Of a stretch of DNA of 64,000 bases, positions 20,794 through 58,256 are shown piece after piece. The stretch's first letter is position 1, and each line of letters begins with the position of its first letter. Below the pieces are notes generated by a model that saw only the letters and a program-made list of their open reading frames with translations, was not told the DNA's origin and ran no database searches. The DNA lies in contig NC_092673.1 in assembly GCF_964355755.1 (NCBI RefSeq), forward strand, positions 18,659,648 to 18,723,647. Reading direction: 5' to 3'. This DNA comes from Antedon mediterranea (lineage: Eukaryota > Animalia > Echinodermata). The translations under genes and the position numbers were made by a program.

Positions 20794-20858
20794 AAAAAGT
20801 AACAGGACGATTACAAGGAGTTATCCGCTACTAAGCGGATAACTAATAAGATAGAAAA

Positions 20859-25671: not shown

Positions 25672-25992
25672 TTCATTATACTGTACTGCTTATTGGCCTC
25701 ATATTTTTAACATCTAAACATTTGTTTGTACAATTTTATGTAATATGTATTTTATTAATGTTTACATTTTGTGATTGATATTGTACAGTAAGTAGATTTT
25801 AATGATTACTTACATTAAGTAATAGGCTAACAATTACTAGATCTGATCCATGGTAATATATTATATTTGTTTTCATTTATCAATAATTAACAATTAGGAT
25901 TATTTACCACATTATTTACAGCAGCAAAAAACAAACAGTTCACATAATGTCTGTTGTCAGTATTTATAAACTTCATTATGATTCCTTTCCAG

Positions 25993-26103
25993 GATGGTGA
26001 CACTCTATTACATTCATATCTGGGGAATGAATATACACCTATTACCTTAGAGATAGTGATGTGTCTCATTCAGCATGGGGCACCAGTAGCATTGCAAAAT
26101 AAG
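25993..26103 (+). CDS. Ankyrin exon A1: DGDTLLHSYLGNEYTPITLEIVMCLIQHGAPVALQNK
   Basis: ttcctttccAG acceptor, GTaaat donor, 111 nt, phase 0-0. Confidence 0.9.
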
Positions 26104-29100
26104 GTAAATGTACAGGGATTTGCTAGTGTAATAAGCTAACATTCTATAGATATGCTGAAGTAAACCATTTAATGAGAGAAAAAAGTAAGCACATTAACAA
26201 AAATCAAATTTGATGTAAACAAACCAAATAAAAAAATAACTCAATAGTTTATATGATTTATGATAACAAACAAATTTAAAGTATACAGTTACCTATCACA
26301 TAACATACATCTTTAATTTTCTTAATGAACAAAAAAATCTACTTTTTTTATATGTTCAGGTGAATCAGTATAATTTTGTTTACATATTTTTGACCGTAAA
26401 ACAAATATAAATTGCTCATATGTAGCTGTAAAGATAGCAATGATTGACAATGGTCTAAACAACTAAAAATGTTTATGTTAAAAAAATTAATAGAATCTGA
26501 TTTTAATAAAAAATAATTATTAATTAAAAACCTGCTCCCTCCCTTACCTTACAAAAAATGCTTCTGTCAGTCTATCCAGCTAATTATAAACATGGCCTTA
26601 AACTACATCTGGAGATCCGTTTCCAACCAGGATCTTTTTGTGAAAACATTTTGCCACAAAAGGAAGAGAAATGTAAATAATGTTTAGCCTTTAGTTTGTG
26701 GTTTCCAAAATGTTTGAGCAATGCAATTTAAAAAAGAGAGCTAAAATGAAATTATTCTTTTCAAACTGAATGCTTTAAGAACAGTTCCGTCTCTTATCTT
26801 ATGACTTTTCGGGGAAAAATGACATTATTAAAGTTGATATATAAAATTTGATACTAGTAAGTGTCAATAGATGGTTCTTAAATACATGACCTTTGGTAAA
26901 TAACTGAAAATTGTTTAAGTACAAAGCAAATAAATACAGATATGTTGGAATTTATGTATAGATTATTAATTGTTAATAACCTGCTCCCGCCCTTTACTTA
27001 CTTTACTTTACTTTAATAAAATACTTCTGTCAGTCTTATCACATACAGCCAGTATGAATATGGCCTTAAAGAGATCCTTTTCCAAACAAACATTTTGCAC
27101 AAAAGGAAGAGAAATGTAAATAATGTTTAGTTTAGTAAAAATGTTTGAGCAATGCAATTTCAAAAAGAAATCTAATATGAAATTATTCTTTTCAAACAGT
27201 GCCGTATCTTATCTTTTGTCTTTTTGGAAAAAAATTATTCTATTAAAGTTGCCAGTTAAAATTTGATATACTGGTAATTAAGTGCCCACAGATGGTTCTT
27301 TCGAATACATAAACTTTGGTAAATAACTGAAAATTGTCTAAGTCGCACTGTACACAAAGCAAATAAATACAGATATGATGGAATTTATGTATTCAAATAT
27401 AATTGTCATCCTGAGAATTACCTTAATTTTGTTTATGACATGGTATTGTTCAACAAATTCCTGTCTTGGTACATTTGATGATGGGATGGTATCGGGCTTC
27501 ATGATATGATATGATTTTCATCGAGGCAAATGATTTAAACTAAATTTGTTATCGTTAATATCTAACTTAGCTTAATTTACTGAAATTTCCCATTACCTAA
27601 ATTTATATGTAAATTCATTAAACTGCTTATTGGCCTCATATTGTTAACATCTAAACATTTGTTTGTACAATTTTATAAAATACGTATTTTATTAATGTTC
27701 ACATTTTGTGATTGATATTATACAGTAAGTAGATTTTAATGATTACTTACATTAAGTAATAGGCTAACAATCACTAGATCTGCTCCATATTATATTTTGT
27801 TTTCATTTATCAATAATGATAATTAGGATTTTATCACATTATTTAGCAGTAATTGTTGTTGTTTGTATTAACAAAAAAAACAATTTCACAAGGCCATGTA
27901 AAAAAAAAATTGTTGATCATCCTTTTTTTTTAAAAAAAAAGTCAGGAGGAAGGGAGGCTTTTTTTTTTTTTTTTTTTAATTATTATCTTTAATTTTTTAT
28001 TATTATCGACTCAGCTTAGACTGGGCCGATACTTTGATCATACCATCTCCCTTTCCGGGCTTCCTATCACTGGCGTACACTGTAGGCAACGTAGGCTTAT
28101 CGCCCACGACGGATTCACCGTCGAACTTCCTCGTGTACAATTCAACATACAACTCTGATAATGTTACAACAGCCGTAACTTCGCAGCCAAACCAATCTTT
28201 AATCGGCGAACTACTACCCTCGCGGGTAATAGAAAGTACCACAAAAGACATTTAAGCTGCATAAATACGTATCAATAAAGATCTATTGTTCGCAAATCAC
28301 GTGTAAAAAGAACCCACGCTGTACAGCAGGCCAGCGAAAAAAATAAACAAAATCAAGCTAGATACCCGTATCTTGCACATGCGCATATTGATACTATCAA
28401 TAGAGGGCCAGATAATCGCGATGAATTTCTGAATTTTGTGATCGCGACGACTGATCTGAGGTTGAAAAACGGGATTTTCGTCCGGATTTTCACGGTTTAA
28501 AAAAAAAAAAAAAATAAATGAGGCGGGCCGATTTTCGATGTCGGGCGAGGACGATCAACAACCTTTTTTTTTACATGGCCTAATGTCTGTTGTCAGTATT
28601 TATAAACTTAATGATTATTATTCCTTTCCAGAATGGTGACACTCCATTACATTCATATCTGGGGAGTATATATATTGCACCTACCTTAGAAATAGTGACA
28701 TGTCTCATTCAGCATGGGGCACCAGTAGCATTGCAAAATAAGGTAAATGTACAGGGATTTGCTAGTGTAATAAGCTAACATTCTATAGATCTGCTGAAGT
28801 AAACCATTTAATGAGAGAAAAAAGTAAGCACATTAACAAAAATGAATTTTGATTAAAACAAACCAAATAAAAAAATAACTAAATAGTTATATATGATTTA
28901 TGATAACTGATTAAAAGTGTACAGTTACCTATCATATAACATAAATCTTTAATTTTCTTAATGAACAAAAAAATCTATTTTTTTTATATATTCAGTTATT
29001 AATTAACAATTATTGACAATGGTCTAATTAATTGTAAATATGAAATAAATAAAATGTGACAACTACTAAACAACTAAAAAATGTTAATGATAAAAAAATT

Positions 29101-32100
29101 AATAGAATCTGATTTTAATAAAAAATGATTATTAATTAATAATGTGCTCCTTCCCTTATCTTACAAAAAAATGCTTCTGTCAGTCTATCCAGCTAATTAT
29201 GAACATGGCCTTAAAGAAATCCTTTTCCAACCTAGGATCTTTTTGTGCAAACATTTTGCCACAAAATGAAGAGAAATGTACACAATGTTTTGTTAGTTTT
29301 CAAAATCTAAATTGTTTGAGTTATGCAATTTAAAAAAGAAAGGTAATATGAAATTATTCTTTTCAAACTGAATGCTTTTAAGAAAAGTTCCGTCTCTTAT
29401 CTTATGACTTTTTTGGAAAAATTATTTCTTGTTAAAATATAATATACTAGTAAGTGCTCACAGATGCTTCTCGAATACATAAACTTTTGTAAATAACTGA
29501 AAATTGCACTGTACACAAGGCAAATAAATACAGATATGATGGAATTTATGTAGTCAAATATAATTGTCATCCTCAGAATTACCTTAATTTTGTTTAATAT
29601 ACGGTAATATTGTTCACCAAATTCCTGTCTTGGTACATTTAATGATGGGATGGTATCAGACTTCGTGATATGATATGATCTTCATCGAGGCAAATGATAA
29701 ATTTGTTTTGATCGTCAATATGTACACTGGTCAGTGTTCTCCCCAGGATTCAAATCAAGCGTCACGCTTCGGGGGGGGGGGGGGGGCATTCCGACACTAA
29801 GTACTTGAGTCACAGCCCCACCATGGTTGGGGCTTTGGCGAAGCGATTTTTGGTAATTTACCCCCTAGATGGCTGGAAATGGTACTCTCGCACATAACAT
29901 TTATGTTGAATGACACCTCTGGTTTGGCCGGAAATAACACTTATAGCGCGCTAGCAAACAACAAAACGATCGTAGCCAACTTTTTCCGCCGATAAACATA
30001 CGCGAAGAAACATTTTTTGCTTTCATTACGAACGTCAGGGGGAAGCCCCAATGAAAAAAATAGGCCTAATCTATTAGCCTACTCATCAGTAGGACAACTC
30101 TAGTTGGCCGGAAACGAAACTTTATAGCGCACTAGCAAACAGTAAAACCATCGTAGCATACTTTTTCCGCCAGTAAACATACGCGATAAAAAAATGTTTT
30201 TGCGTTCAATACGAACGTCAAGGGGAATTCCCCGATGAAATAAAACTAGGCCTACTCATGAGTAGAACAACTCTGTAGTTGGCCGGAAAGACACTTCATA
30301 GCGCGCTAGCAAACCGCACGATCGTAGCCTGCTTTTTCCGCCGGTAAACATACGCGATAAGAAACATTTTTTGCGTTCATTACGAACGTCAAGGGGAATT
30401 CCCCGATGAAATAAAAAATGCCTACTCATCAGTAGGACAACTCTGTAGTTGGCCGGAAAGGACACTTCATAGCGCGCTAGCAAACAGCCCGATTGAGCCT
30501 ACTTTTGCGCAGGTAAACATACTGTACGCGATATATGAAAAAAAAATATGCCTCATCAGTAGGCAACTGTAGTTAGCCGGAAACGACACCTCATAGCGCG
30601 TTAGCAAACATTAAAAACGATCGTAGCCTACTTTTTTTTTCGCCGGCGGGTAAACATATGCAATAAAAAAACATTTTTTGCGTTCAAATACAAATATCGG
30701 GGGCAAGTCCCGATGAAATAAAACTAGGCTTACTCATTAGTAAGACACCTCAAGTTGCCCGGAAATAAGACTTCATAGCGCACAAGGAAATAGGAAAACA
30801 TTCGAAAGAGAGACATGGCAGTAACAAAACACGTGCTTACATCTCTCGGCGGCGGCCGGTGAAAGCACCATGTGACATACAGTATCGCAGTACTGATATC
30901 ACAATACCATGTGACATCCCTTGTCACTCGACTTTCTCACGAAGTAGGGCCTAAAACATTCTAGCACCGATGTACAAATGTACCTTAAGTTAAGTGAAAT
31001 AAGACTTTAGCACACTAGCAAATAGGAAAACGATCGTAGCCTTCTTGAATGTATTATACGATCAAAGCAGCTAGCATTGAATTGCGCCTAGAAATCATTT
31101 GATGACGTCATCGATATTTATTTTTAATACACATAACATTTTTACAAGAAAAACAATACAATCAATCATTTACTTTATTTACAATATACAAGTTACTACA
31201 CTTTAGACAACAGCCAAATACTAGAGATCGAAAGAGAGACATGGCAGTAACAAAACACGTGTTTACATCTCTCGGCGGCGGCGGCCGGTGAAAGCGAGTC
31301 TCAGTTGTTTAACACTTTGTTACGCAGTCTTTTGTTTTTCGTCTAGTGGTCATGTCACGTGTCTCGTATGCATTAGGCTCTTTATGCATGCCGCGCCTCA
31401 GCTCTAGAAAAGTACCGTACCTGCCTGTTAATCTATTTTTAGATTGTTGTGGTTGATATTTTTAAGCGTCACGGATAAGGTTTTAAGCGTCACGGCCGAC
31501 CGTAAAGCGTCACGGTAGAGAACCCAAGCGTCACGGTACCGTGATGCTTCAAAGGCCTGGGGAGAACACTGCTGGTTTTCATTAGGTGTTAAAAATTAGT
31601 ACCGAAAGTATGTACCAACTTTCTCTACCATTGGGTAAAAATTATAGAAGTTGCACTTAATTTACTGAAATTTCCCATTACGTAAATTTGTAAATTCATT
31701 AAACTGCTTATTGGCCTCATATTTTTAATATCTGAACATTTGTTTGTACAATTTTATGAAATATGTATTTTATAACGTTCAAATTTTGTGATTGATATTG
31801 TACAGTAATTAGATTTTGATGATTACTTACATTAAGTAATAGACTAACAATCACTGAATCTGATCCATGGTAATATATTATATTTTGTTTTCATTTATCA
31901 ATAATGATAATTAGGATTTTATCACATTATTTAGCAGTAATTGTTGTTGTTTGTATTAACAAAAAAACCCAATTTCACATAATGTCTGTTGTCAGTATTT
32001 ATAAACTTCATGATTATGATTCCTTTCCAGTATGGTAACACTCTATTACATTCATATCTGAGGAATGTATATACTGCACCTACCTTAGAAATAGTGACGT

Positions 32101-35100
32101 GTCTCAAGCAGCATGGGGCACCAGTAGCATTGCAAAATAAGGTAAATGTACAGGGATTTGCTAGTGTAATAGGCTAACATTATATAGATCTGCTGAAGTA
32201 AACCATTTAATGAGAGAAAAAAGTAAGCACATTAACAAAAATCAAATTTGATTAAAACAAACCAAATAAAAAAATAACTAAATAGTTATATATGATTTAT
32301 GATCTGATTTAAAGTGTACAGTTACCTATCATATAACATAAATCTTTAATTTTCTTAATGAACAAAAAAATCTATTTTTAAAATATATTCAGTTATTAAT
32401 TAACAATTATTGACAATGGTCTAATTAATTGTAAATATGAAATAAAATGCGACAACTACTAAACAACTAAAAATGTTTATTAAAAAAAATAATAGAATCT
32501 GATTTTAATAAAAAATAATTATAAATTAAAAACCTGCTCCCTCCCTTACCTTACAAAAAATGCTTCTGTCAGTCTATCCAGCTAATTATGAACATGGCCT
32601 TAAAGAAATCCTTTTCCAACCTAGGATCTTTTTGTGCAAACATTTTGCCACAAAATGAAGAAAAATGTTTTGTTAGTTTTCAAAATCTAAATTGTTTGAG
32701 TAATGCAATTTTAAAAAGAAAGTTAATATGAAATTATTCTTTTCAAACTGAATGCTTTTAAGAAAAGTTCCGTCTTTTATCTTATGACTTTTTTGAAAAA
32801 ATGAATTCTCCTTAAAATATAATAAACTAGTAAGTGCTCACAGATGCTTCTCGAATACAAGAACTTTGGTAAATAACTGAAAATTTTCTAAGTCACAGTG
32901 TACACAAAGCAAATGAATACAGATATGTTGGAATTTATGTAGTCAAATATAATTGTCATCCTGAGAATTACCTTAATTTTGTTTATTGCATGGTATTGTT
33001 CACCAAATTCCTGTCTTGGTATATTTGATGATGGGATGGTATTAGGCTTAATGATATGATATGATTTTCATTGAGGCAATATGGTTTAAACTAAATTTGT
33101 TATCGTTAATATCTAAATTAGCTTAATTAGGTTATATGCATTATCATGCATATAACCTCTTGATTCTGTCAAAATCTTTATTTATTTATTTATTTATTTA
33201 TTCTTTCCTTAGCACTATTTTGTCCGTGAATTATCTTGATATCAGTTTCATCTATCTAAGTCAATTTTTCAGAGTATATTCCTTATGGCCAGGAATCGAT
33301 GTGGTTATATTTTCACGATGCGTATTCAAAAATTACGCGGTCTACGCGCGATTTTACGAAATCACGTTTGTAATCATATCTTCACAAGCATGAATCACAA
33401 TTAAACAAAATTTGGTACTCATAAATTTCAGGTCATATTTCATCATATGGCAATACAGTTACGTGCGTAGCGCATATAACGCTTGCGTACGCGCGCTTAA
33501 AATGTTCAAAATTGTCAAAATTTATTTTCGATGAAATTAGAGTACGTTTCAGGCAATTTTAAGCGTTTAAAAAATTGCCATGAGTGCGCAGATTTTTGCA
33601 CGCGCACTGCGCGTTATACGTTAATGCGCACTCTTTTTGTCCGATTTCGGTTGTACAACCTTTCTTTAATAATATCATCATATTTTATTCACTTTTCAAC
33701 GCGTAATTGCCTTATACGAGCACGTCAAAAGTGACAGGCTACGCACGTGTAAGTTAACAAAATGGTGAAAATATGCTAAATTTTAAAATTAATATAGATC
33801 GTCAGAATGCTCGGGAACACATATTTTTTATTTCATTTTCTTGAAGTGTATGTATCTTATGTATGATTTATTATTAAACTAAGGGAACAAAAGTTGATTA
33901 AGCCATGATTAATTGCATATTAAATTAAAAAAAATAATTTCGACAATCAAACAAATTATGACATTTTCTTAGGCCAAAATAACAAACTTAACATTAACTT
34001 TCATCCTTCAAAAGTTCATATATTAAAGTTAAAAGTATATAGTTTGACAGTGCATCATTTTTGTACATTTTTAGAGATGTCATCATAGTAAAAAATTATA
34101 ATTCATTGCGGTATGTAATAATCTATCTGCACCAAAGTGGTTACTGCATAGTAAATACACGGAGGAAGTTTTTCTACAATTTTTAGTCAGTTGTGTATGG
34201 CTCGGTGGTGTGTGGTCGTGTCTATGGCACTCCAGGTACCGAGATCGAGTCTCACCTTGGGAAACGAAATAAGATTTTTTTTTTATTAACCGTATTGTTT
34301 GTTCAAATTTATTTCTTAGTGTATATATTATACACATGATTTATAATGAAATCTAGATAAAAAATAACTTATGTCTTTATTATTATGTAACAGCAAATGT
34401 GGTTTATGACATTATACGCAGAGGGATCTTTGATCGGATTGTAATACCGGCTATTGTATTCACGTTAGCAAGGTCCTATCATATATTATAAATAATTAAA
34501 GAATCTGAGAAAATCAATGAATCAAAATATCATTTAAAAATCAATTATCTTTATTTTAATTATCAATGCATATAACCTATAATTCGTCATAGTGACGAAT
34601 TAAATCTAGTTATGACATTGGTTTCATTGGGTGTTAAAAATCAGTACCGAAAGTATGTACCAACTTTCTCTACCATTGAGTATAAATTCTAGAAGTTGCA
34701 CTTAATTTACTGAAATTTCCCATTACCTAATTTTAAATTTATATGTAAATTCATTTAACTGCTTATTGGCCTCATATTGTTAACATCTAAACATTTGTTT
34801 GTACAATTTTATGAAATATGTATTTTATTAATGTTCAAATTTTGTGATTGATATTGTACAGTAAGTAGATTTTAATGATTACTTACATTAAGTAATAGGC
34901 TAACAAAATCACTAGATCTGATCCATGGTAATATATTTCATTTATCAATAATGATAATTAGGATTTTATCACATTATTTAGCAGTAATTGTTGTTGTTTG
35001 TATTAACAAACAAAAAACAATTTAACATAATGTCTGTTGTCAGTATTTATATTGCTTCATTATGATTCCTTTCCAGTTTGGTGACACTCCATTACATTCA

Positions 35101-38100
35101 TATCTGGGGAGTAGATATACACCTACCTTAGAAATACTGACGTTTCTCATTCAGCATGGGGCACCAGTAGCATTGCAAAATAAGGTAAATGTACAGGAAT
35201 TTGCTAGTGTAATAGGATAACATTATATAGATCTGTTGAAGTAAACCATTTAATGAGAGAAAAAAGTAAGCACATTAACAAAAATCAAATTTGATTAAAA
35301 CAAACCAAATAAAAAAATAACTAAATAGTTATATATGATTTATGATCTGATTTAAAGTGTACAGTTACCTATCATATAACATAAATCTTTAATTTTCTTA
35401 ATGAACAAATAATCTTTTTTTTTTATATATTCAGTTATTAATTAACAATTATTGACAATGGTCTAAATTAATTGTAAATATGAAATAAAATGCGACACCT
35501 ACTAAACAACTAAAAATGTTTATGTTAAAAAAATTAATAGAATCTGATTTTAATAAAAAATAATTATTAATTAATAACCTACTCCCTCCCTTACCTTACA
35601 AAAAATGCTTCTGTCAGTCTATCCAGCTAATTATAAACATGGCCTTAAACTACATCTGGAGATCCTTTTCCAACCTAGGATATTTTTGTGCAAACATTTT
35701 GCCACAAAAGGAAGAGAAATGTAAATAATATTTAGCCTTTTAGTTAGTGGTTTCCAAAATTTAAAATGTTTGAGCAATGCAATTTAAAAAAGAAAGCTAA
35801 TATGAAATTATTCTTTTCAAACTGAATGCTTTAAGAACAGTTCCGTCTCTTATCTATGACTTTTCTGGGAAAAATGACATTATTAAAGTTGCTATATAAA
35901 ATTTGATACTAGTAAGACCCCATTTACACTTCATCGACGATTTCTTAGCCGGCCCGAAGTCGGCCCGACGCCGGCTTTCTTTTTAGCCCGCAATGTGTTT
36001 ACACTTACCCAAAAAGCCGGCCTCGGGCCCTTACTATTGTGTTTACACTTGCTCTCGCGGAAGAGTGCTCGATGATACGATTTCGCTACATTCACGTCAT
36101 ATCCGCTCATGTGCGTCTTAAAAAGTTAATATTATAAGCGTTGTCGATCTACACTAGGCCTAGGCCTATCAACTTTATCAAAAAAGAATCAAATAACGGT
36201 ATTTAATATGGATCAAAACAATTGTATTATTGCTTTACTACTAATGTTTGCGTCTCGTTTTCTAAAGAATAGTAGTAGATCATACGCCTTTTTCACGAAA
36301 CGGAAGACATCTTCGATCGATGACGACACAAACAATGCCGTTCAACGAAGCGTAACCAACAGAAATAACATAGCGTTTTCAGCCTATTTTCGGAGGAAAA
36401 GTTACTTAAAAATTCGTAACGCCTCAACGGACAGTCGTATGGACAAAATTTTTACTGTAAAATGTTCTTTAAAGATTAGCCTATAGAACTGTGTGATTAA
36501 AAAAAATTATAATTTTTTTTTCACTTCTTAAGTCCATCGAAAAAAACACCACAGTTTATAAGCATAGGCGATGGTGTCCTGAAATCCCCTGAAAACGCTA
36601 TGTTATTTATGTTGGTTACACTTCGTTGCACGGCATTGTTTGTCATAGATCGGAAAAAGGCGTATACATCTTCACCAATTTAATTTCAATGAAGAATTTC
36701 CGATTCATCAGCAATAAGTTTCGTAAACTTAAAGCTATAGTTGACCCAGAACGTTCATTTTATGACCGCGAGTGTTTGCACTATACGAAGTGCCGGCCCG
36801 AAGCCCGCAATTGCCGGCCCGAAGCCTACTCTAGACTAGGCTCAAAATTGAGCCGGCTCGAGGCCGGCTCGGTTGTTCCCAGAGTGTTTACACTTGTGCA
36901 CTTTTGGCTCGAGCCGGCCTCGGGCTCGCTAAAAGCTGAAGTGTAAATGGGGTCTAAGTGTCAATAGATGGTTCTTAAATACATGACCTTTGGTAAATAA
37001 CTGAAAATTGCACTGTACACAAGGCAAATAAATACAGATATGATGGAATTTATGTAGTCAAATATAATTGTCATCCTGAGAATTACCTTAATTTTGTTTA
37101 TTGCATGGCATTGTTCACCAAATTCCTGTCTTGGTACAATTGATGATGGGATGGTATAAGGCTTCATGATATGATATGATCTTCATCGAGTCATGATATG
37201 ATATGATCTTCATCGAGGCAAATGGTTTAAACTAAATTTGTTATCGTTAATATCTAACTTAAATTAATTATGATATTGGTTTCATTGGGTGTTAAAAATC
37301 AGTACTGAAAGTATGTACCAACTTTCTCTACCATTGAGTATAAATTCTAGAAGTTGCACTTAATTTACTGAAATTTCTCATTACCTAAATTTATATGTAA
37401 ATTCATTAAACTGCTTATTGGCCTCATATTGTTAACATCTAAACATTTGTTTGTACAATTTTATGAAATATGTATTTTATTAATGTTCAAATTTTGTGAT
37501 TGATATTGTACAGTAAGTAGATTTTAATGATTACTTACATTAAGTAATAGCCTAACAATCACTAGATCTGATCCATGGTAATATATTATATTTTGTTTTC
37601 ATTTATCAATAATGATATAATTAGGATTTTATCACATTATTTAGCAGTAATTGTTGTTGTTTGCATTAACAAAAAATACCAATTTCACATAATGTCTGTT
37701 GTCAGTATTTATAAACTTCATTATGATTCCTTTCCAGGATGGTTACACTCCATTAAATTCATATCTGGGGAGTGTATATACACCTACCTTAGAAATAGTG
37801 ACGTGTCTCATTCAGCATGGGGCACCAGTATCATTGCAAAATGAGGTAAATGTACAGGGATTTGCTAGTGTAATAAGCTAACATTATATAGATCTGCTGA
37901 AGTAAACCATTCAATGAGAGAAGCACATTAACAAAAATCAAATTTGATTAAAACAAACCAAATAAAAAAATAACTAAATAGTTATATATGATTTATGATA
38001 ACTGATTTAAAGTGTACAGTTACCTATCATATAACATAAATCTTTAATTTTCTTAATGAACTAAAAAATCTATTTTTTTTATATATTTATTAATTAACAA

Positions 38101-41100
38101 TTATTGACAATGGTCTAATTAATTGTAAATATGAAATAAAATGTGACAACTACTAAACAACTAAAAAATGTTTATGTTAAAAAAATTAATAGAATCTGAT
38201 TTTAATAAAAAATGATTATTAATTAATAATGTGCTCCTTCCCTTATCTTACAAAAAAATGCTTCTGTCAGTCTATCCAGCTAATTATGAACATGGCCTTA
38301 AAGAAATCCTTTTCCAACCTAGGATCTTTTTGTGGAAACATTTTGCCACAAAATGAAGAGAAATGTACACAATTTTTTGTTAGTTTTCAAAATCTAAATT
38401 GTTTGAGTTATGCAATTTAAAAAAGAAAGGTAATATGAAATTATTCTTTTCAAACTGAATGCTTTTAAGAAAAGTTCCGTCTCTTATCTTATGACTTTTT
38501 TGGAAAAATTATTTCTTGTTAAAATATAATATACTAGTAAGTGCTCACAGATGCTTCTCGAATACATAAACTTTGGTAAATAACTGAAAATTGCACTGTA
38601 CACAAGGCAAATAAATACAGATATGATGGAATTTATGTAGTCAAATATAATTGTCATCCTGAGAATTACCTCAATTTTGTTTATTGCATGGTATTGTTCA
38701 CCAAATTCCTGTCTTGGTACATTTGATGATGGGATGGTATAAGGCTTCATGATATGATATGATCTTCATCGAGGCAAATGATAAATTTGTTTTGATTGTC
38801 AATATAGTACACTGGTTTTCATTAGGTGTTAAAAATTAATAGCGAAAGTATGTACCAACTTTCTCTACCATTGGGTAAAAATTATAGAAGTTGCACTTAA
38901 TTTACTGAAATTTCCCATTACGTAAATTTATATATAAATTCATTAAACTGCTTATTGGCCTCATATTTTTAATATCTGAACATTTGTTTGTACAATTTTA
39001 TGAAATATGTATTTTATAACGTTCAAATTTTGTGATTGATATTGTACAGTAATTAGATTTTAATGATTACTTACATTAAGTAATAGGCTAACAATCACTA
39101 GATCTGATCCATGGTAATATATTATATTTTGTTTTCATTTATCAATAATGATAATTAGGATTTTATCACATTATTTAGCAGTAATTGTTGTTTGTATTAA
39201 CAAAAAAACCCAATTTCACATAACGTCTGTTGTCAGTATTTATAAACTTCATGATTATGATTCCTTTCCAGTCTGGTAACACTCTATTACATTCATATCT
39301 GAGGAATGTATATACTGCACCTACCTTAGGAATAGTGATGTGTCTCATTCAGCATGGGGCACCAGTAGCATTGCAAAATAAGGTAAATGTACAGGGATTT
39401 GCTAGTGTAATAGGCTAACATTATATAGATCTGCTGAAGTAAACCATTTAATGAGAGAAAAAAGTAAGCACATTAACAAAAATCAAATTTGATTAAAACA
39501 AACCAAATAAAAAAATAACTAAATAGTTATATATGATTTATGATCTGATTTAAAGTGTACAGTTACCTATCATATAACATAAATCTTTAATTTTCTTAAT
39601 GAACAAAAAAATCTATTTTTAAAATATATTCAGTTATTAATTAACAATTATTGACAATGGTCTAATTAATTGTAAATATGAAATAAAATGCGACAACTAC
39701 TAAACAACTAAAAATATTTATTAAAAAAAATAATAGAATCTGATTTTAATAAAAAATTATTATAAATTAAAAACCTGCTCCCTCTCTTACCTTACAAAAA
39801 ATGCTTCTGTCAGTCTATCCAGCTAATTATGAACATGGCCTTTAAAGAAATCCTTTTCCAACCTAGGATCTTTTTGTGCAAACATTTTGCCACAAAATGA
39901 AGAGAAATGTAAACAATGTTTTGTTAGTTTTCAAAATCTAAATTGTTTGAGTAATGCAATTTTAAAAAGAAAGTTAATATGAAATTATTCTTTTCAAACT
40001 GAATGCTTTTAAGAAAAGTTCCGTCTTTTATCTTATGACTTTTTTGAAAAAATGAATTCTCGTTAAAATATAATAAACTAGTAAGTGCTCACAGAACTTT
40101 GGTAAAACTGAAAATTGTCTAAGTCACAGTGTACACAAAGCAAATGAATACAGATATGTTGGAATTTATGTAGTCAAATATAATTGTCATCCTGAGAATT
40201 ACCTTAATTTTGTTTATTACATGGTATTGTTCACCAAATTCCTGTCTTGGTATATTTGATGATGGGATGGTATTAGGCTTCATGATATGATATGATTTTC
40301 ATTGAGGCAATATGGTTTAAACTAAATTTGTTATCGTTAATATCTAAATTAGCTTAATTATGACATTGGTTTCATTGGGTGTTAAAAATCAGTACCGGAA
40401 GTATGTACCAACTTTCTCTACCATTGAGTAAAAATTCTAGAAGTTGCACTTAATTTACTGAAATTTCTCATTACCTCAATTTATATGTAAATTCATTTAA
40501 CTGCTTATTGGCCTCATATTGTTAACATCTAAACATTTGTTTGTACAATTTTATGAAATATGTATTTTATTAATGTTCAAATTTTGTGATTGATATTGTA
40601 CAGTAAGTAGATTTTAATGATTACTTACATTAAGTAATAGCCTAACAATCACTAGATCTGATCCATGGTAATATATTATATTTTGTTTTCATTTATCGAT
40701 AATGATAATTAGGATTTTATCACATTATTTAGCAGTAATTGTTGTTGTTTGTATTAACAAAAAAAAAACAATTTGATTTCACATAATGTCTGTTGTCAGT
40801 ATTTATATTACTTCATTATGATTCCTTTCCAGTATGGTGACACTCCATTACATTCATATCTGGGGAGTGGATATACACCTACCTTAGAAATACTGACGTT
40901 TCTCATTCAGCATGGGGCACCAGTAGCATTGCAAAATAAGGTAAATGTACAGGAATTTGCTAGTGTAATAGGATAACATTATATAGATCTGCTGAAGTAA
41001 ACCATTTAATGCGAGAACAAACCAAATAAAAAAATAACTAAATAGTTTATATGATTTATGATAACTGATTAAAAGTGTACAGTTAGCTATTATATAACAT

Positions 41101-44100
41101 AAATCTTTAATTTTCTTAATGAACAAATAATCAATTTTTTTTATATATTCAGTTATTAATTAACTATTATTGACAATGGTCTACTTCATTGTAAATATGA
41201 AATAAAATGCGACAACTACTAAACAACTAAAAATGTTTATGTTAAAAAAATTAATAGAATCTGATTTTAATAAAAATTAATTATTAATTAATAACCTACT
41301 CCCTCCCTTACCTTATTACAAAAAATGCTTCTGTCAGTCTATCCAGCTAATTATAAACATGACCTTAAACTACATCTTGAGATCCTTTTCCAACCTAGGA
41401 TATTTTTGTGCAAACATTTTGCCACAAAAGGAAGAGAAATGTAAATAATATTTAGCCTTTTAGTTAGTGGTTTCCAAAATTTAAAATGTTTGAGCAATGC
41501 AATTTAAAAAAGAAAGCTAATATGAAATTATTCTTTTCAAACTGAATGCTTTAAGAACAGTTCCGTCTCTTATCTTATGACTTTTCGGGGAAAAATGACA
41601 TTATTAAAGTTGCTATATAAAATTTGATACTAGTAAGTGTCAATAGATGGTTCTTAAATACATGACCTTTGGTAAATAACTGAAAATTGCACTGTACACA
41701 AGGCAAATAAATACAGATATGATGGAATTTATGTAGTCAAATATAATTGTCATCCTGAGAATTACCTTAATTTTGTTTATTGCATGGTATTGTTCACCAA
41801 ATTCCTGTCTTGGTACAATTGATGATGGGATGGTATAAGGCTTCATGATATGATATGATCTTCATCGAGGCAAATGGTTTTTAAACTAAATTTGTTATCG
41901 TTAATATCTAACTTAACTTAATTATGATATTGGTTTCATTGGGTGTTAAAAATCAGTACCGAAAGTATGTACCAACTTTCTCTACCATTGAGTATAAATT
42001 CTAGAAGTTGCACTTAATTTACTGAAATTTCTCATTACCTAAATTTATATGTAAATTCATTAAACTGCTTATTGGCCTCATATTGTTAACATCTAAACAT
42101 TTGTTTGTACAATTTTTATGTATTTTATTAATGTTTACATTTTGTGATTGATATTGTACAGTAAGTAGATTTTAATGATTACTTACATTAAGTAATAGCC
42201 TAACAATCACTAGATCTGATCCATGGTAATATATTATATTTTGTTTTCATTTATCAATAATGATAATTAGGATTTTATCACATTATTTAGCAGTAATTGT
42301 TGTTTGTATTAACAAAAAAACCCAATTTCACATAATGTCTGTTGTCAGTATTTATAAACTTCATTATGATTCCTTTCCAGGATGGTGACACTCCATTAAA
42401 TTCATATCTGGGGAGTGTATATACACCTACCTTAGAAATAGTGACGTGTCTCATTCAGCATGGGGCACCAGTAGCATTGCAAAATAAGGTAAATGTACAG
42501 GGATTTGCTAGTGTAATAAGCTAACATTATATAGATATGCTGTGGTAAACCATTCAATGAGAGAAGCACATTAACAAAAATCAAATTTGATTAAAACAAA
42601 CCAAATAAAAAAATAACTAAATAGTTATATATGATTTATGATAACTGATTTAAAGTGTACAGTTACCTATCATATAACATAAATCTTTAATTTTCTTAAT
42701 GAACAATAAAATCTTTTTTTTTTTATATATTCAGTTATTAATTAACAATTATTGACAATGGTCTAATTAATTGTAAATATGAAATAAAATGGGACAACTA
42801 CTAAACAACTAAAAAATGTTTATGATAAAAAAAATTAAAAGAATCTGATTTTAATAAAAAATGATTATTAATTAATAATGTGCTCCTTCCCTTATCTTAC
42901 AAAAAAAATGCTTCTGTCAGTCTATCTAGCTAATTATGAACATGGCCTTAAACTACATCTGGAGATCCTTTTCCAACCTATGATCTTTTTGTGCAAACAT
43001 TTTGCCACAAAATGAAGAGAAATGTACACAATGTTTTGTTTGTTTTCAAAATCTAAATTGTTTGAGTAATGCAATTTAAAAAGAAAGGTAATATGAAATT
43101 ATTCTTTTCAAACTGAATGCTTTTAAGAAAAGTTCCGTCTCTTATCTTATGACTTTTTTGAAAAAATGATTTCTTGTTAAAATATAATATACTAGTAAGT
43201 GCTCACAGATGCTTTTTGAATACATGAACTTTGGTAAATAACTGAAAATTGCACTGTACACAAGGCATATAAATACAGATATGATGGAATTTATGTAGTC
43301 AAATATAATTGTCATCCTGAGAATTACCTTAATTTTGTTTATTGCATGGTATTGTTCACCAAATTCCTGTCTTGGTACAATTGATGATGGGATGGTACTG
43401 TATCAGGCTTCATGATATGATATGATCTTAATCGAGGCAAATGATAAATTTGTTTTGATCGTCAATATAGTACACTGGTTTTCATTACCGTATATTTCGG
43501 TATATAAGTCGCACTTTTGACACGCAAATTTGACCTCTAAATTAAGGGTGCGTCTTATACACCGAACATAAATGCCTCACCACACAGTGTACATATCGTC
43601 ACCTCGTTGGCTAGGCTAGGCCTAGCTACAGTGTACTAACGTAACGGCAACCTGCTTCTGCCTAGTTTTCAAGGCATTTTAGCGTGATGTTATACTAAAT
43701 ATGATGAAAAGATTTGTTTATTATGGAGCTGTTTTAGGCGCTCCGAGAAAATTTCATTTGTAAACGTTTACGATTGGAATAGATAGTATTTATTTATAGT
43801 TATACGCACGATCGCCGACCGCCGTACCCCCAGCGCAAGCCCTTCTTGGCGGCCACATGTTGTACGGTATTCGACTAGTATATTCTCCAGGTGATTATAG
43901 CATGGACCTAGCGTACACACTTCTCGGATACATAGATACTAATCGAATACGATTGTCCGTGAAAACGTGCGCCCTCTTGAAATGATCGAGCGAGGCTAGC
44001 CCACACACGTGCGTGTTACACACACGGTCATGCACTCGATGTTGCGGGTGCGAAACTCGTGAATAACAAGTTAGAAACAACTTGTTGAGGCTGGCCGCGG

Positions 44101-47100
44101 CCGAGCCTAGGTAAGAAAAAACCTAAATAAAGGACGCCGTTGTAGATATAACAAAATATATTATTACAATAAGATTGATTCCGGGATTGATTACAATATA
44201 AAAAAAACATTGTTTTGATGAAATATAAGGTGCGTCTTATACATCGACGATACAAAAAACACCGTGGTTAGGATTCCGGCACCGGAACCCAACTGCCCAG
44301 CGTTAGGGAATCCGACACGCTATTGCGCATGCCCAGAGCGAGGTAATCGGCGACTCTATACTATACCAATTCTTTGACTATACAGCGATGGATCATTTCA
44401 TAGCTACGCCACACGGCGAACTAGCCTAGATGCCTACTAATGCGGGATCCACTAATCTAGGCTAGGGCTACCAGTTAGACGTGACCAGTGGGCCTATTTA
44501 TTTTGTAATTAAAAAATGGTTGCTTCATTCATATATAAACTTTTCATATCATTATGAATTATATAATTACATGACTAGTTTTATGATTTTTCATAACGCA
44601 TTTAATATACTGTACATAACATGCAATCACAAGTTGATTTGTTGACGGCAGCCACCGCGTGGATGTGAAAAAACTGTTCGGGAATTCGGGGTCGCAACGT
44701 TAAAAACAGCATTACGATTCTTAGATAGATACTGATTCTTATTAATATCATTATAATTATTTTAACGCGTGGCGTAGTCGTATTTTAATTATTAATTCAT
44801 GTATGGCATAGGCCAAGTTTCATCCATCTCTCGCTCGCGCAACGACTCGACTATCTAGGCTACAGTAAATCCCTATAACACTCCGACTCTAGGTGTTGTG
44901 GTGTGTGGCACTATTAGTGCAAGCTATAATTCACTTCCCAGAGCTCTGGGCATGAGCAATATCGTGTCGGATTCCCTAACGGTGGGCAGTTGAGTTCCGG
45001 TGCCGGAATCCTAACCACGGCGTACAAAAAATACCGATATTTTACTCTCAGTTAGGGGGTGCGTCTTATACACAGGTGCGACTTATACACCGAAATATAC
45101 GGTAGGTGTTAAAAATTAGTACCGAAAGTATGTACCAACTTTCTCTTCCATTGAGTAAAAATTCTAGAAGTTGCACTTAATTTACTGAAATTTCCCATTA
45201 CCTAAATTTATATGTAAATTCATTTAACTGCTTATTGGCCTCATACATTATGTTAACATCTAAACATTTGTTTGTACAATTTTATGAAATATGTATTTTA
45301 TTAATGTCAAAATTTTGTGATTTGATATTGTACAGTAAGTAGATTTTAATGATTACTTACATTAAGTAATAGGCTAACAATCACTAGATCTGATCCATGG
45401 TAATATATTATATTTTGTTTTCATTTATCGATAATGATATTTAGGATTTTATCACATTATTTAGCAGTAATTGTTGTTGTTTGTATTAACAAAAAATACC
45501 AATTTCACATAATGTCTGTTGTCAGTATTTATAAACTTCATTATGATTCCTTTCCAGTCTGGTGACACTCTATTACATTCATATCTGGGGCGTGGAGACC
45601 CTACCTTAGAAATAGTGACGTGTCTCATTCAGCATGGGGTACCAGTAGCATTGCAAAATAAGGTAAATGTACAGGGATTTGCTAGTGTAATAGGCTAACA
45701 TTATATAGATCTGCTGAAGTAAACCATTTAATGAGAGAAAAAAGTAAACACATTAACAAAAATCAAATTTGATTAAAACAAACCAAATAAAAATAATAAC
45801 TAAATAGTTATATATGATTTATGATAACTGATTTAAAGTGTACAGTTATCATATAACATAAATCTTTAATTTTCTAAATGAACAAAAAAATCTATTTTTA
45901 AAATATATTCAGTTATTAATTAACAATTATTGACAATGGTCTAATTAATTGTAAATATGAAATAAATGCGATAACTACTAAACAACTAAAAATGTTTATT
46001 AAAAAAATTAATACAATCTGATTTTAATAAAAAATAATTATTAATTAAAAACCTGCTCCCTCCCTTACCTTACAAAAAATGCTTCTGTCAGACTATCCTG
46101 CTAATTATGAAAATGGCCTTAAAGAAATCCTTTTCCAACCTAGGATCTTTTTGTGCAAACATTTTGCCACAAAATGAAGAGAAATGTAAACAATGTTTTG
46201 TTAGTTTTCAAAATCTAAATTGTTTGAGTAATGCAATTTAAAAAAGAAAGGTAATATGAAATTATTCTTTTCAAACTGAATGCTTTTAAGAAAAGTTCCG
46301 TCTCTTATCTTATGACTTTTTTGGAAAAATGATTTCTCGTTAAAATATAATATACTAGTAAGTGCTCACAGATGCTTTTTGAATACATGAACTTTGGTAA
46401 ATAACTGAAAATTGCACTGTACACAAGGCAAATAAATACAGATATGATGGAATTTATGTAGTCAAATATAATTGTCATCTTGAGAATCTATATATAAATT
46501 TACGTAAGGGCAAAATTCGGTAAATCGCGCCTTACTTCTAGAATTTTTACTCGATGGTATATAAAGTTGGTTCGTACTTTCGGTACTGATTTTAACCACC
46601 TGATGTAACCCTGTTTACTAATTAAATTAAGTTAGATAATTAGTTATTGACGATTAAAACGAATTTAGGTTCAACGATTTGCCCCAAATAGGGGTGTTTT
46701 CCGATCGTGGTATACACTGTCTAATGGATGTCCATCTTGAAAAATACCCGCCACAAAAATGCGAGGAGGCTTCGCATTTTCCTATCTCCTCCTACGATAA
46801 TTTTTTTTAATAGCTGAAAACTGGTTGAACAGCTAGAGTACAGCATCATAATGTTGAAGACGGGCCGATTTTCTTTAAAAAATACTATTTTGATAGATTT
46901 AATATACGATTATACAAATGTATTGATTTGCGATGAATGGAACATCCCAATCTCTCAGTCTGCCAGAGTTTGGTTTAACACAAGTAGGTAGATTTATGAG
47001 CCCTTGGTTTAACACATACGGTAGGTAAATATATGGGCCCTTTGAGAATAAACTTGAGCAATACTGTAAATACCTATTAACTATTTTTTTTCTTTTTTTT

Positions 47101-50100
47101 TCTTACTGTGAATGTTCGTACTGTTGGATGTAATATAAAAATATATACAAATAAACGTTATTACTGAGATTGTGGATAGGCTCTACTGTTAGATATATAA
47201 ACACATTATTATATACACATAAACTTTATACTGACAGTTCTTTCTCAACGTTTGTATTAATTAATAATTACCAACAATATAAACGTCGTAGTGGTGTATC
47301 GTGACATGTACTTTAATATTTCAATCGATTATGACAGTGACAGTTTTAACAAGGTATTAAATCGCAAATGTTTTACTGTATTTAGAGGTATATTATTTAT
47401 AGGCGTATAAAACATGAAAAAAATATTTCGTTACTGAGTGGATAAAGAATATATTTAAAAATTGTTCCTCTTTGCACCTATCCGCTTTCCCATCCCTCAA
47501 CCCTAATGTTACATAAAAAACACAAATTGGGTTTCTTTAAATGAGTCCAAATCAAAAATTTGGACTCATTTTGTGATAAGTTTCTCCTTCGGAAGTAATT
47601 CCCAGGGTGCTAATTTTAGTTGACTACATAAATCATTGTGTCTATTTATACGTTTCTGTATACGACAATTATAGTATATTATAGTCCTGCGGAACGTACT
47701 TTGAAATCGCCAGTTTTGTTACGCTGAAGTTTCTGTGTATTCGAGAACCATCTGTACCATCTAGTTACCTTAATTTTGTTTATTATATGGTATTGTTCAC
47801 CAGTTCCTGTCTTGGTACATTTGATGATGGGATGGTATAAGGCTTCATGATATGATATGATCTTCATCGAGGCAAATGATAAATTTGTTTTGATCGTCAA
47901 TATAGTACACTGGTTTTCATTAGGTGTTAAAAATTAGTACCGAAAGTATGTACCAACTTTCTCTACCATTGGGTAAAAATTATAGAAGTTGCACTTAATT
48001 TACTGAAATTTAATTCCCATTACGTAAATTTATATATAAATTCATTAAACTGCTTATTGGCCTCATATTTTTAATATCTGAACATTTGTTTGTACAATTT
48101 TATGCAATATGTATTTTATAACGTTCAAATTTTGTGATTGATATTGTACAGTAATTAGATTTTGATGATTACTTACATAAGTAATAGGCTAACAATCACT
48201 AGATCTGATCCATGGTAATATATTATATTTTGTTTTCATTTATCAATAATGATAATTAGGATTTTATCACTTTATTTAGCAGTAATTGTTGTTGTTTGTA
48301 TTAACATAAAAAACAATTTCACATAATGTCTGTTGTCAGTATTTATAAACTTCATTATGATTCCTTTCCAGAATGGTGACACTCTATTACATTTATATGT
48401 GAGGAGTTTTCATTGGGTGTTAAAAATCAGTACCGAAAGTATTTACCAACTTTCTCTACCATTGAGTAAAAAATTCTAGAAGTTGCACTTAATTTACTGA
48501 AATTTCCCATTGCCTAAAATTCATTAAACTGTTTATTGGCCTCATATTTTTATTTGCTGAACATTTGTTTGTACAATTTTATGAAATATGTATTTTATTA
48601 ATGTTCAAATTTTGTGATTGATATTGTACAGTAAGTAGATTTTAATGATTACTTACATTAAGTAAATAACAATCACTAGATCTGCTCAATGCTAAGATAT
48701 TCTATTTTGTTCTCATTTATCAATAGTCGACAATTATGATTATTGACCACATTATTTAGCAGTAATTTTTGCTATGGTTTGGGTTGACAAAGAAAACCCA
48801 AATTCACATAATGTTTGTTGTCAGTATTATACACCAGCAACATTGCAAATAAGGTAATGTACAGGGATTATACAGGGATATTTCATTTGTTTCTGGATAG
48901 TATCCAAATATTATTTGCTTTGAAAGTTTATATTAAAACTATTTGTTGTTTTATATTATGGCTCAAACATTTTAACACATCTACCTACTGTTCCAAAGTA
49001 AACTTTTATTCAATTTATCTCTCTCTCTCTCTTCCATCTTTCAATGTTGAAGGAGGTAGGCTTAAACAGTAACACTCAAGTTTTTGTTTGGATACAGGAG
49101 TTATAATTGGCGCACTGTACAAGTTGATGTCATTTATTGGCAAATAGTAATTTCTATTCACGTCCTAATTTATGTTAAAAAATAGTAAATCTATGTGTTA
49201 TCACGTGATGCTCTTTCATCCAATCTCTAGATGGTAAATGTTTGAGCCATGACATAATACTGTATGTATGTGATGCGTAATTAAAGTGTGTTATATTGTA
49301 TATCAATAATTTCTCAAAACTACTAATAACTAAACCCATTTTTTTAATAGGATGGAAATACACCTGTCTCAGTTTTAGAAAATAACGGGTGGATAAGGGA
49401 CCAGGGTAAAACTGAAATTTTAAACTTCTTTAAAAGTAAGTGAAATTTTAATTATTAAAATTTTGGAATCAACTAGTTTTCATTACAAACGATAAAGATT
49501 TGATTTCTTGTCCCAAATGAAGAAGAATGCCCATATCAAAACTAGAAAATTAGCATTTATGATATCATTCACATGTTCAGATGGCAATAGATTAAATAAT
49601 CCACTGGGATTGTAGTATACATGGAAGTTGTGATATGTTGCAAGATGTAAAAACCTTATTTTTTATGATTTGAAAATTGCAAATAAATTAGGAAAATTAT
49701 TTTGCCATTACGATAAAAATACACAAAAATGCAAACTTTAAAATTCCTTTGAATTAACAATATTGAATAAATTAGGCCACACTTTTTTTTTTATGGAACG
49801 TCATTTTTCACATCAAATCAATCTCTTTATTCATCAATACATCAAAACAATTATACATAAACAAAATAAAGATGTGAAGATGAAAGGGACCTCCAAGAAA
49901 CCCAAAGGGACTTGTGATAAAAGGCCCACTATAAGCTAGTTACAAAAAAGACATACAAAAAATAAATTAATAAAATTAATAAAAAATCCAGTATAGACAA
50001 ATACACGGGATGCGCATTGTTAAGGAATATTTGAACTTTATTAATTGCATATAAATGTAAATGTATATTTTTTTTTTAATGTAATCTATTTTATATATAC

Positions 50101-53100
50101 CGTAATGGTAATATTTAAAATATGTATTCGCAATCGAGGCAAACAATTTACGATAGGAGGAGATAAATATTGAATTTAACAAGGCCATATAGATGGCTGC
50201 AGTCGCTTGCTCAAGTTAGTGTTTACCAACCGACCGACATTGTGAGTTGTAGAGTGGCGTTGCACATGACTAAAAATCTAATTTTCTTGTTAATCCCATT
50301 TTTTGTTTCCACAATGAATGAATTTTCTTCACATACTTTTAAGCCAGATTAAGAATACTATTTCTCTGTATGTAAAATTAAGCATCATACATAATGTATT
50401 TTACCTTGGCTCCTATAATTGTATTATCTTACGACTTACCTCCCATGCAAATAGGCACAAAATAATAAGTAATATTTGAGCATAAACGCTTAAATTATTG
50501 TAAAAGTTGTTATAAATTAATGAGCTTTCAGTAGAGTACTTACACACAGAATAATAGAATATAAAGTTTTATACTTATAAGGTTTCCTTCCACACATACT
50601 ATGTTTTATTAATTATTATCTTACATGTTTATATAATTATTATTATATGTATTTTTAATATGTGTGGAGAATATTTATTCAATATCTATTGAATATTGCA
50701 TAAACAAATTGAATTGAATTGCAAATATTTATCCTTGGCTTGGTGTAGGCCTACTAAAAAAGGTTGAGAATACAGAACCAAAACTGATAGTAATGTATGA
50801 CAAAGTGAACAAACTTTTATAGTCTAAGGAACTTTCTTAGCCAATACATACAAGATTAAACCATTAGGTAAGAGTTCAAAATCTATTTCAAAGACCCATC
50901 CCTATAATTTTCGACTTTTTGTAAAAATAATGCAATATTACTTTAAAAACATTAAAACAGGTTATTCCTTGTCTTAGATGTACGTTTTATGGTAAATTAT
51001 GATAAAATGAAAGAAACAATGCACTACCTAAGTAGCTCGCAGTTTATTTATTATTATAAAGTTGATTAAAATCATTAATAAACTTATATTAGTTTTCAAC
51101 TTTCTGATCGTACCAGACGTAGCCATAGCCAGTGGAACAAAGCAAATCATTAACTTGTTTAGCCCAACAATGTTCATTTCTATTAGTTTTTCTTAGTTGA
51201 AACATGTAACGTTTAAAAGGAAATCTATTTTGATCCATTTCAATGATTTGTAACCAATAATGAATAATAGAAATAAAGCAATCAATGTTTAAGGATAGTC
51301 TGCCTAATTCTGATTTGACAGCCACGCTGGATGCGCTGTTTCCAATGCCTAAAATAAATCTTGAAAAACGTGTCCGTAAATGATCAATTGGTGATAAATT
51401 CGAAAATCCCCATGTCTCCCGTAAATTAAAATTGGTAAAACTTTGTCAAAAATGTGTTTCCATATATTCTCTGGTAGGTATTTTGTTTTGCTATTAATTG
51501 ATTGTAAATAGTTACCATACGTTGTTTGCTTTTTGACAATTGTGTTCAATTGTGTTATTCCACTGACCATTTGAATTGAAAACCACTTCCAAGTAAGTAT
51601 ACGATTTAACAACTTCCATTTTAATGTTTATGTAATACCATTTTTCATATTTCCTTAATTTTTCACCTTTTTTAAATACCATTATTTTTTATTTGTTTAC
51701 ATTTACACTAAGACCCCATATGTCACAAAATATTTCCAATATAATTATTAAATTTTGTAAGCCTTTACTGTGTCTGCAAATAGTAATAAATCAGCAGCAT
51801 ATAGCAGATGGTTTATAAAGCAATCCGGCTCGAGTTATCTTTATTGTGTTTTGACAAACAGGTATAAAAACAAAATTGATTTCTGGTCATAAAACAGAAT
51901 ATAAATAAAAACATTCAAAAAGTTCAAAGCATATTGAAAACTTACGATAGATGTTTTTAATCGCATTTCCTACTGCCTCATTCTGAATCATACCAGTTAT
52001 TCATTTCAGAATTACTTTATTTGCACTTTACCCATTGAAACCATGCTAATCAACCATATGTTGCTATAATTTCAACGATTTAGATTCAGGATCGCTGTCA
52101 AAAAATGTTGCATTTACGTCTATATGTTTGGATGAGTTTGAGTTCCACAATTTTTTTTGGACATAATTTAAATTAATAACTGTAGTTGTTAACTGTATAC
52201 ATTGTAGTTAAAAATATACATTATTATTATAGTATATTTAGAATGAATGATTGCTTGTACACAGTCACCCACAAGTGTTTGTAAGGCTTTGTATCACACA
52301 GAGCCTTATATAACCTTATACCATTGAAAAAAAAAAGCTATGACTTTTAATATAGTGTTTTTTATGAAAATATATAATATGTAATATTTTTGTTTTGTGC
52401 ATTTTTTTAGATTTACCAAGTACTGTTGATGAGCAATTTCAAACACAATTTCAGAAACAGACAAGTGACGAACAGAAAACAAAACTTCTTAAGCCAGAGA
52501 GTGGTAAGTTTAAGAATAAGAGCTGCTGTATGTTTTATGATTGTATCTATATATAATTTAACAGAATTGTGATTAAAATGGGATTTCAGTAAAGAGAGAA
52601 TTAGACGCTAATGTTATTTAAAAAATCATTTCTGAGCAGTACTGTAAAAAGGCGAAAAAGGGTGCAACTGATAACAAATAACAAATGGAGAGATTTTATT
52701 TATCATAAATAACAGTTGATTGTTTCCATTTAAAATACTGTAATAATGGAATGAAGCTAGTTTGCAGATTTATGTGGCATGCTTGCTTGATTTTTGCTTG
52801 ATTGTTGATTTTTAGGTTATAATTATGCATTATCATGCGATCACGCGATCTACGCGCGATTTAACGAAATCACGTTTGTAATCGTATCTTCACAAGCATG
52901 AATCACTTTTAAACAAAATTTGGTACTCATAAATTTCAGGTCATTATTTCATCATATGACAATACAATTACGTGCGTAGCGCATATAACGCATGCGTACG
53001 CGCGCTTAAAATTTCCAAAATCGTCAACATTTATTTTCAATGAAATTAGAGTACGTTTCGGGCAATTTTAAGCGTTTAAAAAATTGCCATGAGTGCGCAG

Positions 53101-58217: not shown

Positions 58218-58256
<39 letters not shown>

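Follow-up and report, generated by a model that had tools for sequence, protein, structure and literature searches.

The window analysed here, a stretch of 64,000 nucleotides from the crinoid Antedon mediterranea (contig NC_092673.1, positions 18,659,648 to 18,723,647), carries on its forward strand a tandem array of exons that each encode one ankyrin (ANK) repeat, followed by a capping exon and by the exons of a Roc GTPase and a COR domain. The array was located on the + strand through six-frame open reading frames, repeat searches and BLAST searches of the window, and no array copies were found on the opposite strand in the window. It comprises nine exons, designated A1 (25993..26103), A2 (28632..28742), A3 (32031..32141) and A6 (39272..39382), with 111 nt and 37 aa each; A4 (35077..35184), A5 (37738..37845), A7 (40833..40940) and A8 (42381..42488), with 108 nt and 36 aa each; and A9 (45558..45662), with 105 nt and 35 aa. 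All nine are stop-free and of phase 0-0, preceded by TTCCTTTCCAG with the AG acceptor and followed by GTAAATGT with the GT donor. Exons holding one repeat in phase 0-0 are not unusual per se in animal ankyrin genes. Pfam Ank matches were obtained in the four array exons scanned, in two of them above the curated cut-off. The nine repeat peptides are all different, with 72-81% identity to the first repeat and a mean column identity of 85%, A1 being the most diverged unit, and length differences among the exons are without exception multiples of 3, as against 9 of 41 gap runs in the introns. Downstream of A9 lie two decayed copies. The tenth copy (48372..48404) retains an intact acceptor and 33 nt of exon, the remainder being deleted, and read-through from it meets a stop after 35 codons; the eleventh (48828..48853) retains the 3' end of the exon and an intact donor (48854) but no acceptor. 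The acceptor at 48372 and the donor at 48854 could define a 482-nt out-of-frame pseudo-exon (48372-48853) containing a stop, which, if used, would give an ankyrin-only product or decay. The C-terminal capping exon (49351..49435, 85 nt, phase 0-1) then closes the array, and A1-A9, the cap and 13 further exons up to 63143 form one open frame of 995 aa.

The unit that has been copied consists of exon plus intron and measures ~1.55 kb. Units 5-7 are bare, and the other units hold an internal duplication or differing insertions; the A1 intron, checked for a lost exon, holds an internal duplication and insertion only. At 27891-28581, 50 nt upstream of the A2 acceptor, lies an element of 691 nt whose terminal inverted repeats read AGGCCATGT...ACATGGCCT; the window contains no other copy of it. 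The intron following A3 contains an insertion (33122-34570) of which an inverted copy, 92% identical, lies in a Roc intron (56852-58311) and a further partial copy at 52840-53728. Exons A3 and A6, as well as A4 and A7, pair in both the downstream-intron and the exon trees, and A5 and A8 pair in both the upstream-intron and the exon trees; these pairings therefore indicate that a block of three units, 3-5, was copied as units 6-8. Sister units differ by ~2% in their introns and exon-flanking intron blocks by up to ~15%. The six intron-block trees disagree with each other, and recombination among units 2-9 (unit 1 being left out) is supported at p=0.0005 by a neighbour-incompatibility test with 72 informative sites.

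These differences also bear on the soundness of the assembly. Tandem repeats are hard to assemble, and no record spanning the array was seen among contigs from four sequencing runs that were compared over positions 34950-49900. An artefact from collapsed reads is nevertheless unlikely, because sister introns differ by ~2%, exon-flanking intron blocks differ by up to ~15% and several units carry different insertions; the nine peptides all differ as well, and pieces of the module recur elsewhere: an exon and both its flanks occur in a related organism (21 mismatches; run X9, record 26), and a second sample (S1; run X1, record 1) has a diverged version of the module. The chance that the array as a whole was created by assembly is accordingly negligible. 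In runs X8 and X5, and not in X1 or X9, a contig joins positions 42555 and 48236 with 13 letters between them (listed for X5); this contig represents a module whose intron is very short and which comes either from another locus or from an allele not seen in X1.

Substitution patterns among the units were analysed for signs of selection. Mean divergence is 9.1% in exons versus 5.8% and 6.3% in the flanks, with a pN (non-synonymous) of 0.111 and a pS (synonymous) of 0.032. Minimum numbers of changes amount to 32 over 82.5 non-synonymous sites, 4 over 28.5 synonymous sites and 152 over 678 intronic sites (p=0.028 and 0.005). A codon model returns an omega of 3.11 (likelihood-ratio test versus omega=1, p=0.019), and an omega of 5.0 (p=0.008) when four loop columns are removed. 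The change is unevenly distributed within the repeat. [quoted passage not shown] The excess falls on exon codons 1, 3, 11 and 12 and on loop codons 13-17. In the three sister pairs, 10 non-synonymous and 0 synonymous changes are found (p=0.048). In an alignment with DARPin chains, the variable exon positions coincide with the residues that vary among those chains, and DARPins engage their targets with the concave face (PMC8229355). Variation in the arrays of two other protein models, P0040 and P0065, likewise peaks in the loop and at the end of helix 1. Taken from a small and recombining sample of sequences, these data argue with moderate strength for diversifying selection on the repeat exons. 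The sequence-only reading of this DNA had described nine recently duplicated one-repeat exons in phase 0-0 with near-identical splice sites, and had suggested that the array is diversifying; the exon survey confirmed the first point, and the block copy, the recombination, the decayed exons and the excess at binding positions bear out the second.

Downstream of the cap, a linker exon (52411..52503, phase 1-1) leads to the Roc GTPase, which spans 53810..61011 and is encoded by exons 53810-53957, 54361-54446, 54780-54844, 58541-58613, 59424-59581, 60201-60290, 60422-60601 and 60754-61011, COR beginning in the last of these. The remaining COR exons (61330-61524, 62214-62408, 62602-62907, 63072-63143 and 63866 onward) span 61330..64000, and the gene runs off the end of the window. 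Residues 356-995 of the window model are 99.8% identical to the public model P0002 (matching from 52411 on), which continues to an end resembling a death effector domain (DED). P0002 contains Roc (PF08477, E=1.2e-14, 55 bits, cut-off 27) and, directly after it, COR (PF16095, COR-A, E=2.7e-12, residues 386-525, above cut-off), and the 11 best PDB sequence matches are prokaryotic Roco-type entries and LRRK2. The Roc motifs read GQEGVGKT (G1), WDHGGQ (G3) and VGTHKG (G4). Because Roc is followed by COR, both above cut-off in P0002, the locus is assigned by sequence to the ROCO family. The arrangement of array, cap and Roc-COR noted from the sequence alone lies within a single open frame. No Pfam match was obtained for a kinase on P0002 or P0040, or for a STAND ATPase (NACHT or NB-ARC) on P0002. 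The end of P0002, which lies outside the window, shares 37% identity with the DED region of P0020 over a stretch of 153 aa. One Roc intron contains a 15-bp GC-rich minisatellite of ~90 copies (55398-56784), with a short inverted array at 54876-55015.

The locus belongs to a multi-locus family. A search with COR exons returned 33 proteins among 100 candidates, 26 of them from A. mediterranea, 4 from Anneissia japonica and 3 identical to the window; 24 of the 33, including these three, lie on one contig, and the locus therefore sits in a cluster. When a profile of the nine exons was compared with 1.84 billion representatives, crinoid proteins were retrieved at ranks 1, 2, 4, 5, 7 and 12, the other top matches checked being generic many-repeat ankyrin proteins. 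At least one family-type repeat together with the Roc G1 motif was present in 12 of 16 Antedon models examined, and two further searches added members. The search for paralogues that the sequence-only reading had proposed, carried out here at the protein level, thus gave at least 12 ANK-Roc models, which are spread over five large contigs and differ in repeat number (1-8 repeats each, as given by pattern detection, which undercounts). The complete architecture is seen in P0040, with an N-terminal cap (N-cap), 8 ANK repeats, cap, Roc, COR and DED. Homologous caps follow the last repeat in P0036, P0040, P0007 and P0043, and P0036, at 74% identity to the window model, shows the same order of ANK, cap, linker and Roc. 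The predicted fold of P0034, a paralogue and not the domain of the window itself, is a capped ankyrin stack (pLDDT 89.3, template modelling score 0.80 to DARPins). Repeats mostly cluster by gene, the nearest neighbour coming from the same gene in 25 of 40 cases, and those of the window interleave with repeats of P0034, P0035 and P0036 on the same contig, which therefore points to recent locus duplication or exchange. ANK-Roc models also exist in Anneissia, with more distant repeats. The same contig carries the near-identical Roc-COR paralogues P0001, P0003 and P0005 (95-99%) as well as P0039, with different DED-like tails; P0003, a near-twin of P0002, also shares its first exon at 51285, and this segment has therefore been duplicated very recently. 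Odd architectures occur among P0007, P0025 and P0026 (ANK-RocA-COR-RocB-COR, OGFOD2-like sequence before Roc, and kinase-Roc-COR-Death), some of which may be annotation fusions.

In addition to variation in repeat number, the family shows signs that its sensor region has been transferred as a whole. In a midpoint-rooted tree of 24 Roc domains, built without models lacking G1 or G3, two clades are separated with support of 100/100. Clade A is used by most ANK models, and clade B by the window and P0036, the other clade-B members having a DED or a kinase in front, or nothing annotated. The ANK-cap segment of the window is 52-62% identical to the clade-A models P0040, P0007 and P0187, as against 27-29% between its Roc-COR and that of P0040 and P0007, and the similarity to clade-A genes stops at the phase-1 donor of the cap. 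These comparisons suggest that the ANK-cap segment was likely moved onto clade B by exon shuffling at the phase-1 intron following the cap. Transfer from A to B would be the simplest reading of the midpoint-rooted tree, because ANK-clade A exists in Anneissia too. In the Antedon clade-B models that show the motif, G4 has lost the guanine-specifying Asp throughout, in contrast to the THRD of relatives from Anneissia and the THxD of clade A; the G4-G5 part is said to vary in Roco proteins (PMC6337361).

The symmetric phase and near-identical splice sites of the nine exons raise the question of whether variety arises chiefly at the level of RNA, each cell or transcript choosing a subset of nine cassettes, as in Dscam or in the spliced brown-algal ROCO repeats, for which as many as nine splice forms are reported in Ectocarpus (PMC11378527). 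One observation in the family fits such a mechanism. Two models of a paralogue on another contig, P0187 and P0048, labelled isoforms X1 and X2, differ by exactly one 36-aa repeat at the same boundary. Isoform labels of this kind generally rest on transcript alignments. This pair is the sole sign of repeat skipping among 30 proteins looked up (grouped by 90% identity). The 2^9 exon subsets mentioned in the sequence-only reading are arithmetic only, three exon pairs being near-duplicates, and duplication at the DNA level, recombination and selection already explain the variety observed. Combinatorial splicing is thus quite unlikely to be the main generator. The sequencing-run contigs have little bearing on the matter: the run guessed to be RNA resembles DNA in its coverage, with introns and repeats covered in 30 of 30 bins, and none of the 15 contig joints shown has GT..AG ends (343 more joints are not shown), a result that is uninformative on splicing. 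No RNA run was among the 10 runs listed for the sequence, which says nothing about expression.

Considering the exon layout, the block duplication, the recombination, the decayed copies, the amino-acid excess at variable positions and the multi-locus family with differing repeat numbers, all of which are observed, we interpret the locus as likely one ANK-Roc-COR-DED gene, a predicted intracellular sensor of non-self. Its binding surface would owe its variety chiefly to germ-line events in which exon units are copied, recombined and lost under positive selection. We assign this interpretation a probability of roughly 60%. In such a protein, the stacked repeats would present a variable concave face and a length-variable loop, ligand binding would shift a monomer/dimer switch in Roc-COR, and FADD, caspase-8-like proteins or similar DED partners would be recruited by the DED-like domain at the C-terminus, setting off death or defence signals. 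Single repeats may also be skipped, which would probably contribute some variety, secondary to diversification in the germ line.

Several observations weigh against this interpretation. The array begins with a partial intron unit (24935..25992) that abuts a repeat-rich block; this partial unit is 89% identical to positions 484-1534 of unit 5, and no match to its donor-side part was found anywhere upstream within the window. No N-cap or start exon was detected in positions 1-24935 with three paralogue N-caps as queries (best E 0.43), and none of the stored proteins matches positions 1-25000 at E 1e-4. The gene thus has either a first intron longer than 24.9 kb or a truncated 5' end. The public model P0002 starts at 51285, a start shared by its near-twin P0003, and omits the whole array. 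The orphan acceptor at 48372 is intact and must be bypassed in splicing; the G4 motif (60422-60601) reads THKG or THKA, without the usual Asp, in the Antedon clade-B models that show it; and no Pfam DED match as good as E 0.05 was obtained on P0002. The selection analysis has weaknesses of the same bearing. It draws on ~330 coding bases per alignment with few synonymous sites, recombination can inflate omega, and the site classes were drawn after the alignment had been seen. With the loop removed, the non-synonymous excess over introns for all nine exons is non-significant (p=0.096), and 6 of the 10 sister-pair changes fall in framework codons (20, 23, 26 and 33). The framework is conserved to no greater extent than the introns, and both points also fit relaxed constraint.

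Many of these points would follow if the array were an orphaned, 5'-truncated copy that had diversified in a working gene and now, left without a start, persisted as a young pseudogene or a gene-conversion donor, Roc-COR being either untranscribed or transcribed from a different first exon. The cut of the first unit at 24935, the missing N-cap, the shared start of the two public models, the two decayed copies, the framework rate and the many family models that are fragments are all in line with it. Against it, all nine exons keep their frame and both splice sites despite several intron insertions, 14 downstream exons (cap included) are in frame with them, P0036 links the same cap and linker, and the introns of the gene already contain large repeats. 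The first exon of the public models (51285..51374) itself looks like filler and is likely not the true start, because P0017 and P0036 carry unrelated sequences before the same linker exon, that of P0036 being ANK-cap. On balance we consider an orphaned array unlikely. The upstream 24.9 kb is 79% repeated DNA, and includes a 1.9-kb inverted repeat (1-1890), a 71-bp satellite of 40.7 copies (4507-7398) and elements present ~7 times across 13000-25000. Seven intronic and upstream open reading frames gave no Pfam match near a cut-off, and positions 51092-51627 may hold an antisense LINE remnant.

A sensor of non-self also has to be set against a working gene with a non-immune role, which may bind a fast-changing self partner (in allorecognition, gamete interaction or transposon conflict) or serve as a scaffold that drifts by unequal crossover. 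Ankyrin repeats bind partners of many kinds, and numerous functions outside immunity are described for ROCO proteins (PMC11378527). Drift, however, would not lead several independent arrays to concentrate their changes on the binding face, and the presence of DED or death domains in the family suggests death signalling; a non-immune role is therefore rated as highly improbable.

The locus can be compared with several known systems. Brown-algal type I LRR-ROCO genes, where LRR stands for leucine-rich repeat, likewise combine a ROCO GTPase with an N-terminal array of one repeat per symmetric exon and a variable number of repeats, and likewise show inactivated exon copies, recombination, diversifying selection and clustered paralogues (PMC3341825, PMC11378527). 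Their repeats are LRRs on phase 2 exons of a fixed 72 nt, whereas those described here are ankyrin repeats on phase 0 exons of 105-111 nt with a length-variable loop; further differences here are that no inverted exon copies were found in the window, that the end is DED-like and that the host is an animal. Lacking LRRs, the locus is not a member of the brown-algal exon-shuffling ROCOs but would, by analogy, work alike, and the proposal of the sequence-only reading, that it may be an animal, ankyrin-based analogue of those arrays, is supported by the duplication, recombination, exon birth and death and binding-position excess described above. The fungal NLRs with high internal conservation (HIC), such as Podospora HNWD and the ANK and TPR types, likewise have near-identical repeats in which a few positions are hypervariable, and paralogues that exchange repeats; they also have a switch of the NTPase kind and an effector of the death type, both of which are only predicted here, the latter as DED-like (PMC13449251). 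In the crinoid locus, the switch would be Roc-COR instead of a STAND ATPase, and the repeats are N-terminal, each in its own exon; with no STAND ATPase Pfam match on P0002, the locus does not classify by sequence as an NLR. Proteins combining an NTPase with HIC repeats are reported from animals as well (PMC13449251).

Among metazoan proteins, DAPK1, LRRK1/2 and MFHAS1 share the Roc-COR tandem, and that family includes members with ankyrin repeats and with a death-fold domain; bacterial LRR-AP-GTPase-COR conflict systems combine fast-evolving N-terminal repeats with variable C-terminal effectors (PMC6337361, PMC4104024, PMC8195603). In contrast to the metazoan proteins, P0002 has no kinase match, its G4 is THKG, and its relatives form a lineage-specific multi-copy family instead of a conserved gene. 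In the accessible text of Teng 2024, ANK-ROCO is given only for oomycetes and Gonium (PMC11378527), and in that of two other sources ROC is fused to caspase or TIR in lophotrochozoans, with no ankyrin cassette (PMC11463336, PMC9334734). The ankyrin domains of the family resemble DARPins in having an N-cap, stacked near-consensus modules and a C-cap (PMC8229355, PMC8683736), and, in the chain alignment, in having variable residues where helix 1 ends and on both sides of the Gly that precedes TPLH; they differ in being natural and genome-encoded, and in an extra insertion of 2-7 residues between the helices. No published description of an ankyrin-exon ROCO array in a crinoid or other animal was found in a literature search that covered few subscription journals. 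The design principle is already in print for brown algae and fungi, and what is new here is its ankyrin/Roc-COR variant in an echinoderm.

If the gene is expressed as modelled, the shuffled-repeat sensor design of brown algae and fungi also exists in an echinoderm, where it is built from another kind of repeat and switched by Roc-COR, and the locus offers a test case for the idea that the many unexplained ROCO genes of invertebrates act as receptors. The public annotation misses the array at this locus, and such sensors are therefore likely to be undercounted. Change is fastest on the surface that is randomised when DARPins are engineered, and the family is therefore a potential source of naturally selected ankyrin binders. 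A more far-reaching and decidedly tentative proposal is that crinoids carry a natural DARPin library, made up of multi-locus ANK-cassette ROCO receptors in which germ-line repeat shuffling, sensor swaps between Roc clades and single-repeat exon skipping would give individuals or cells differing repertoires of intracellular recognition wired to a DED; if true, this would constitute a deuterostome, ankyrin-based and GTPase-built counterpart of NLR-type immunity.

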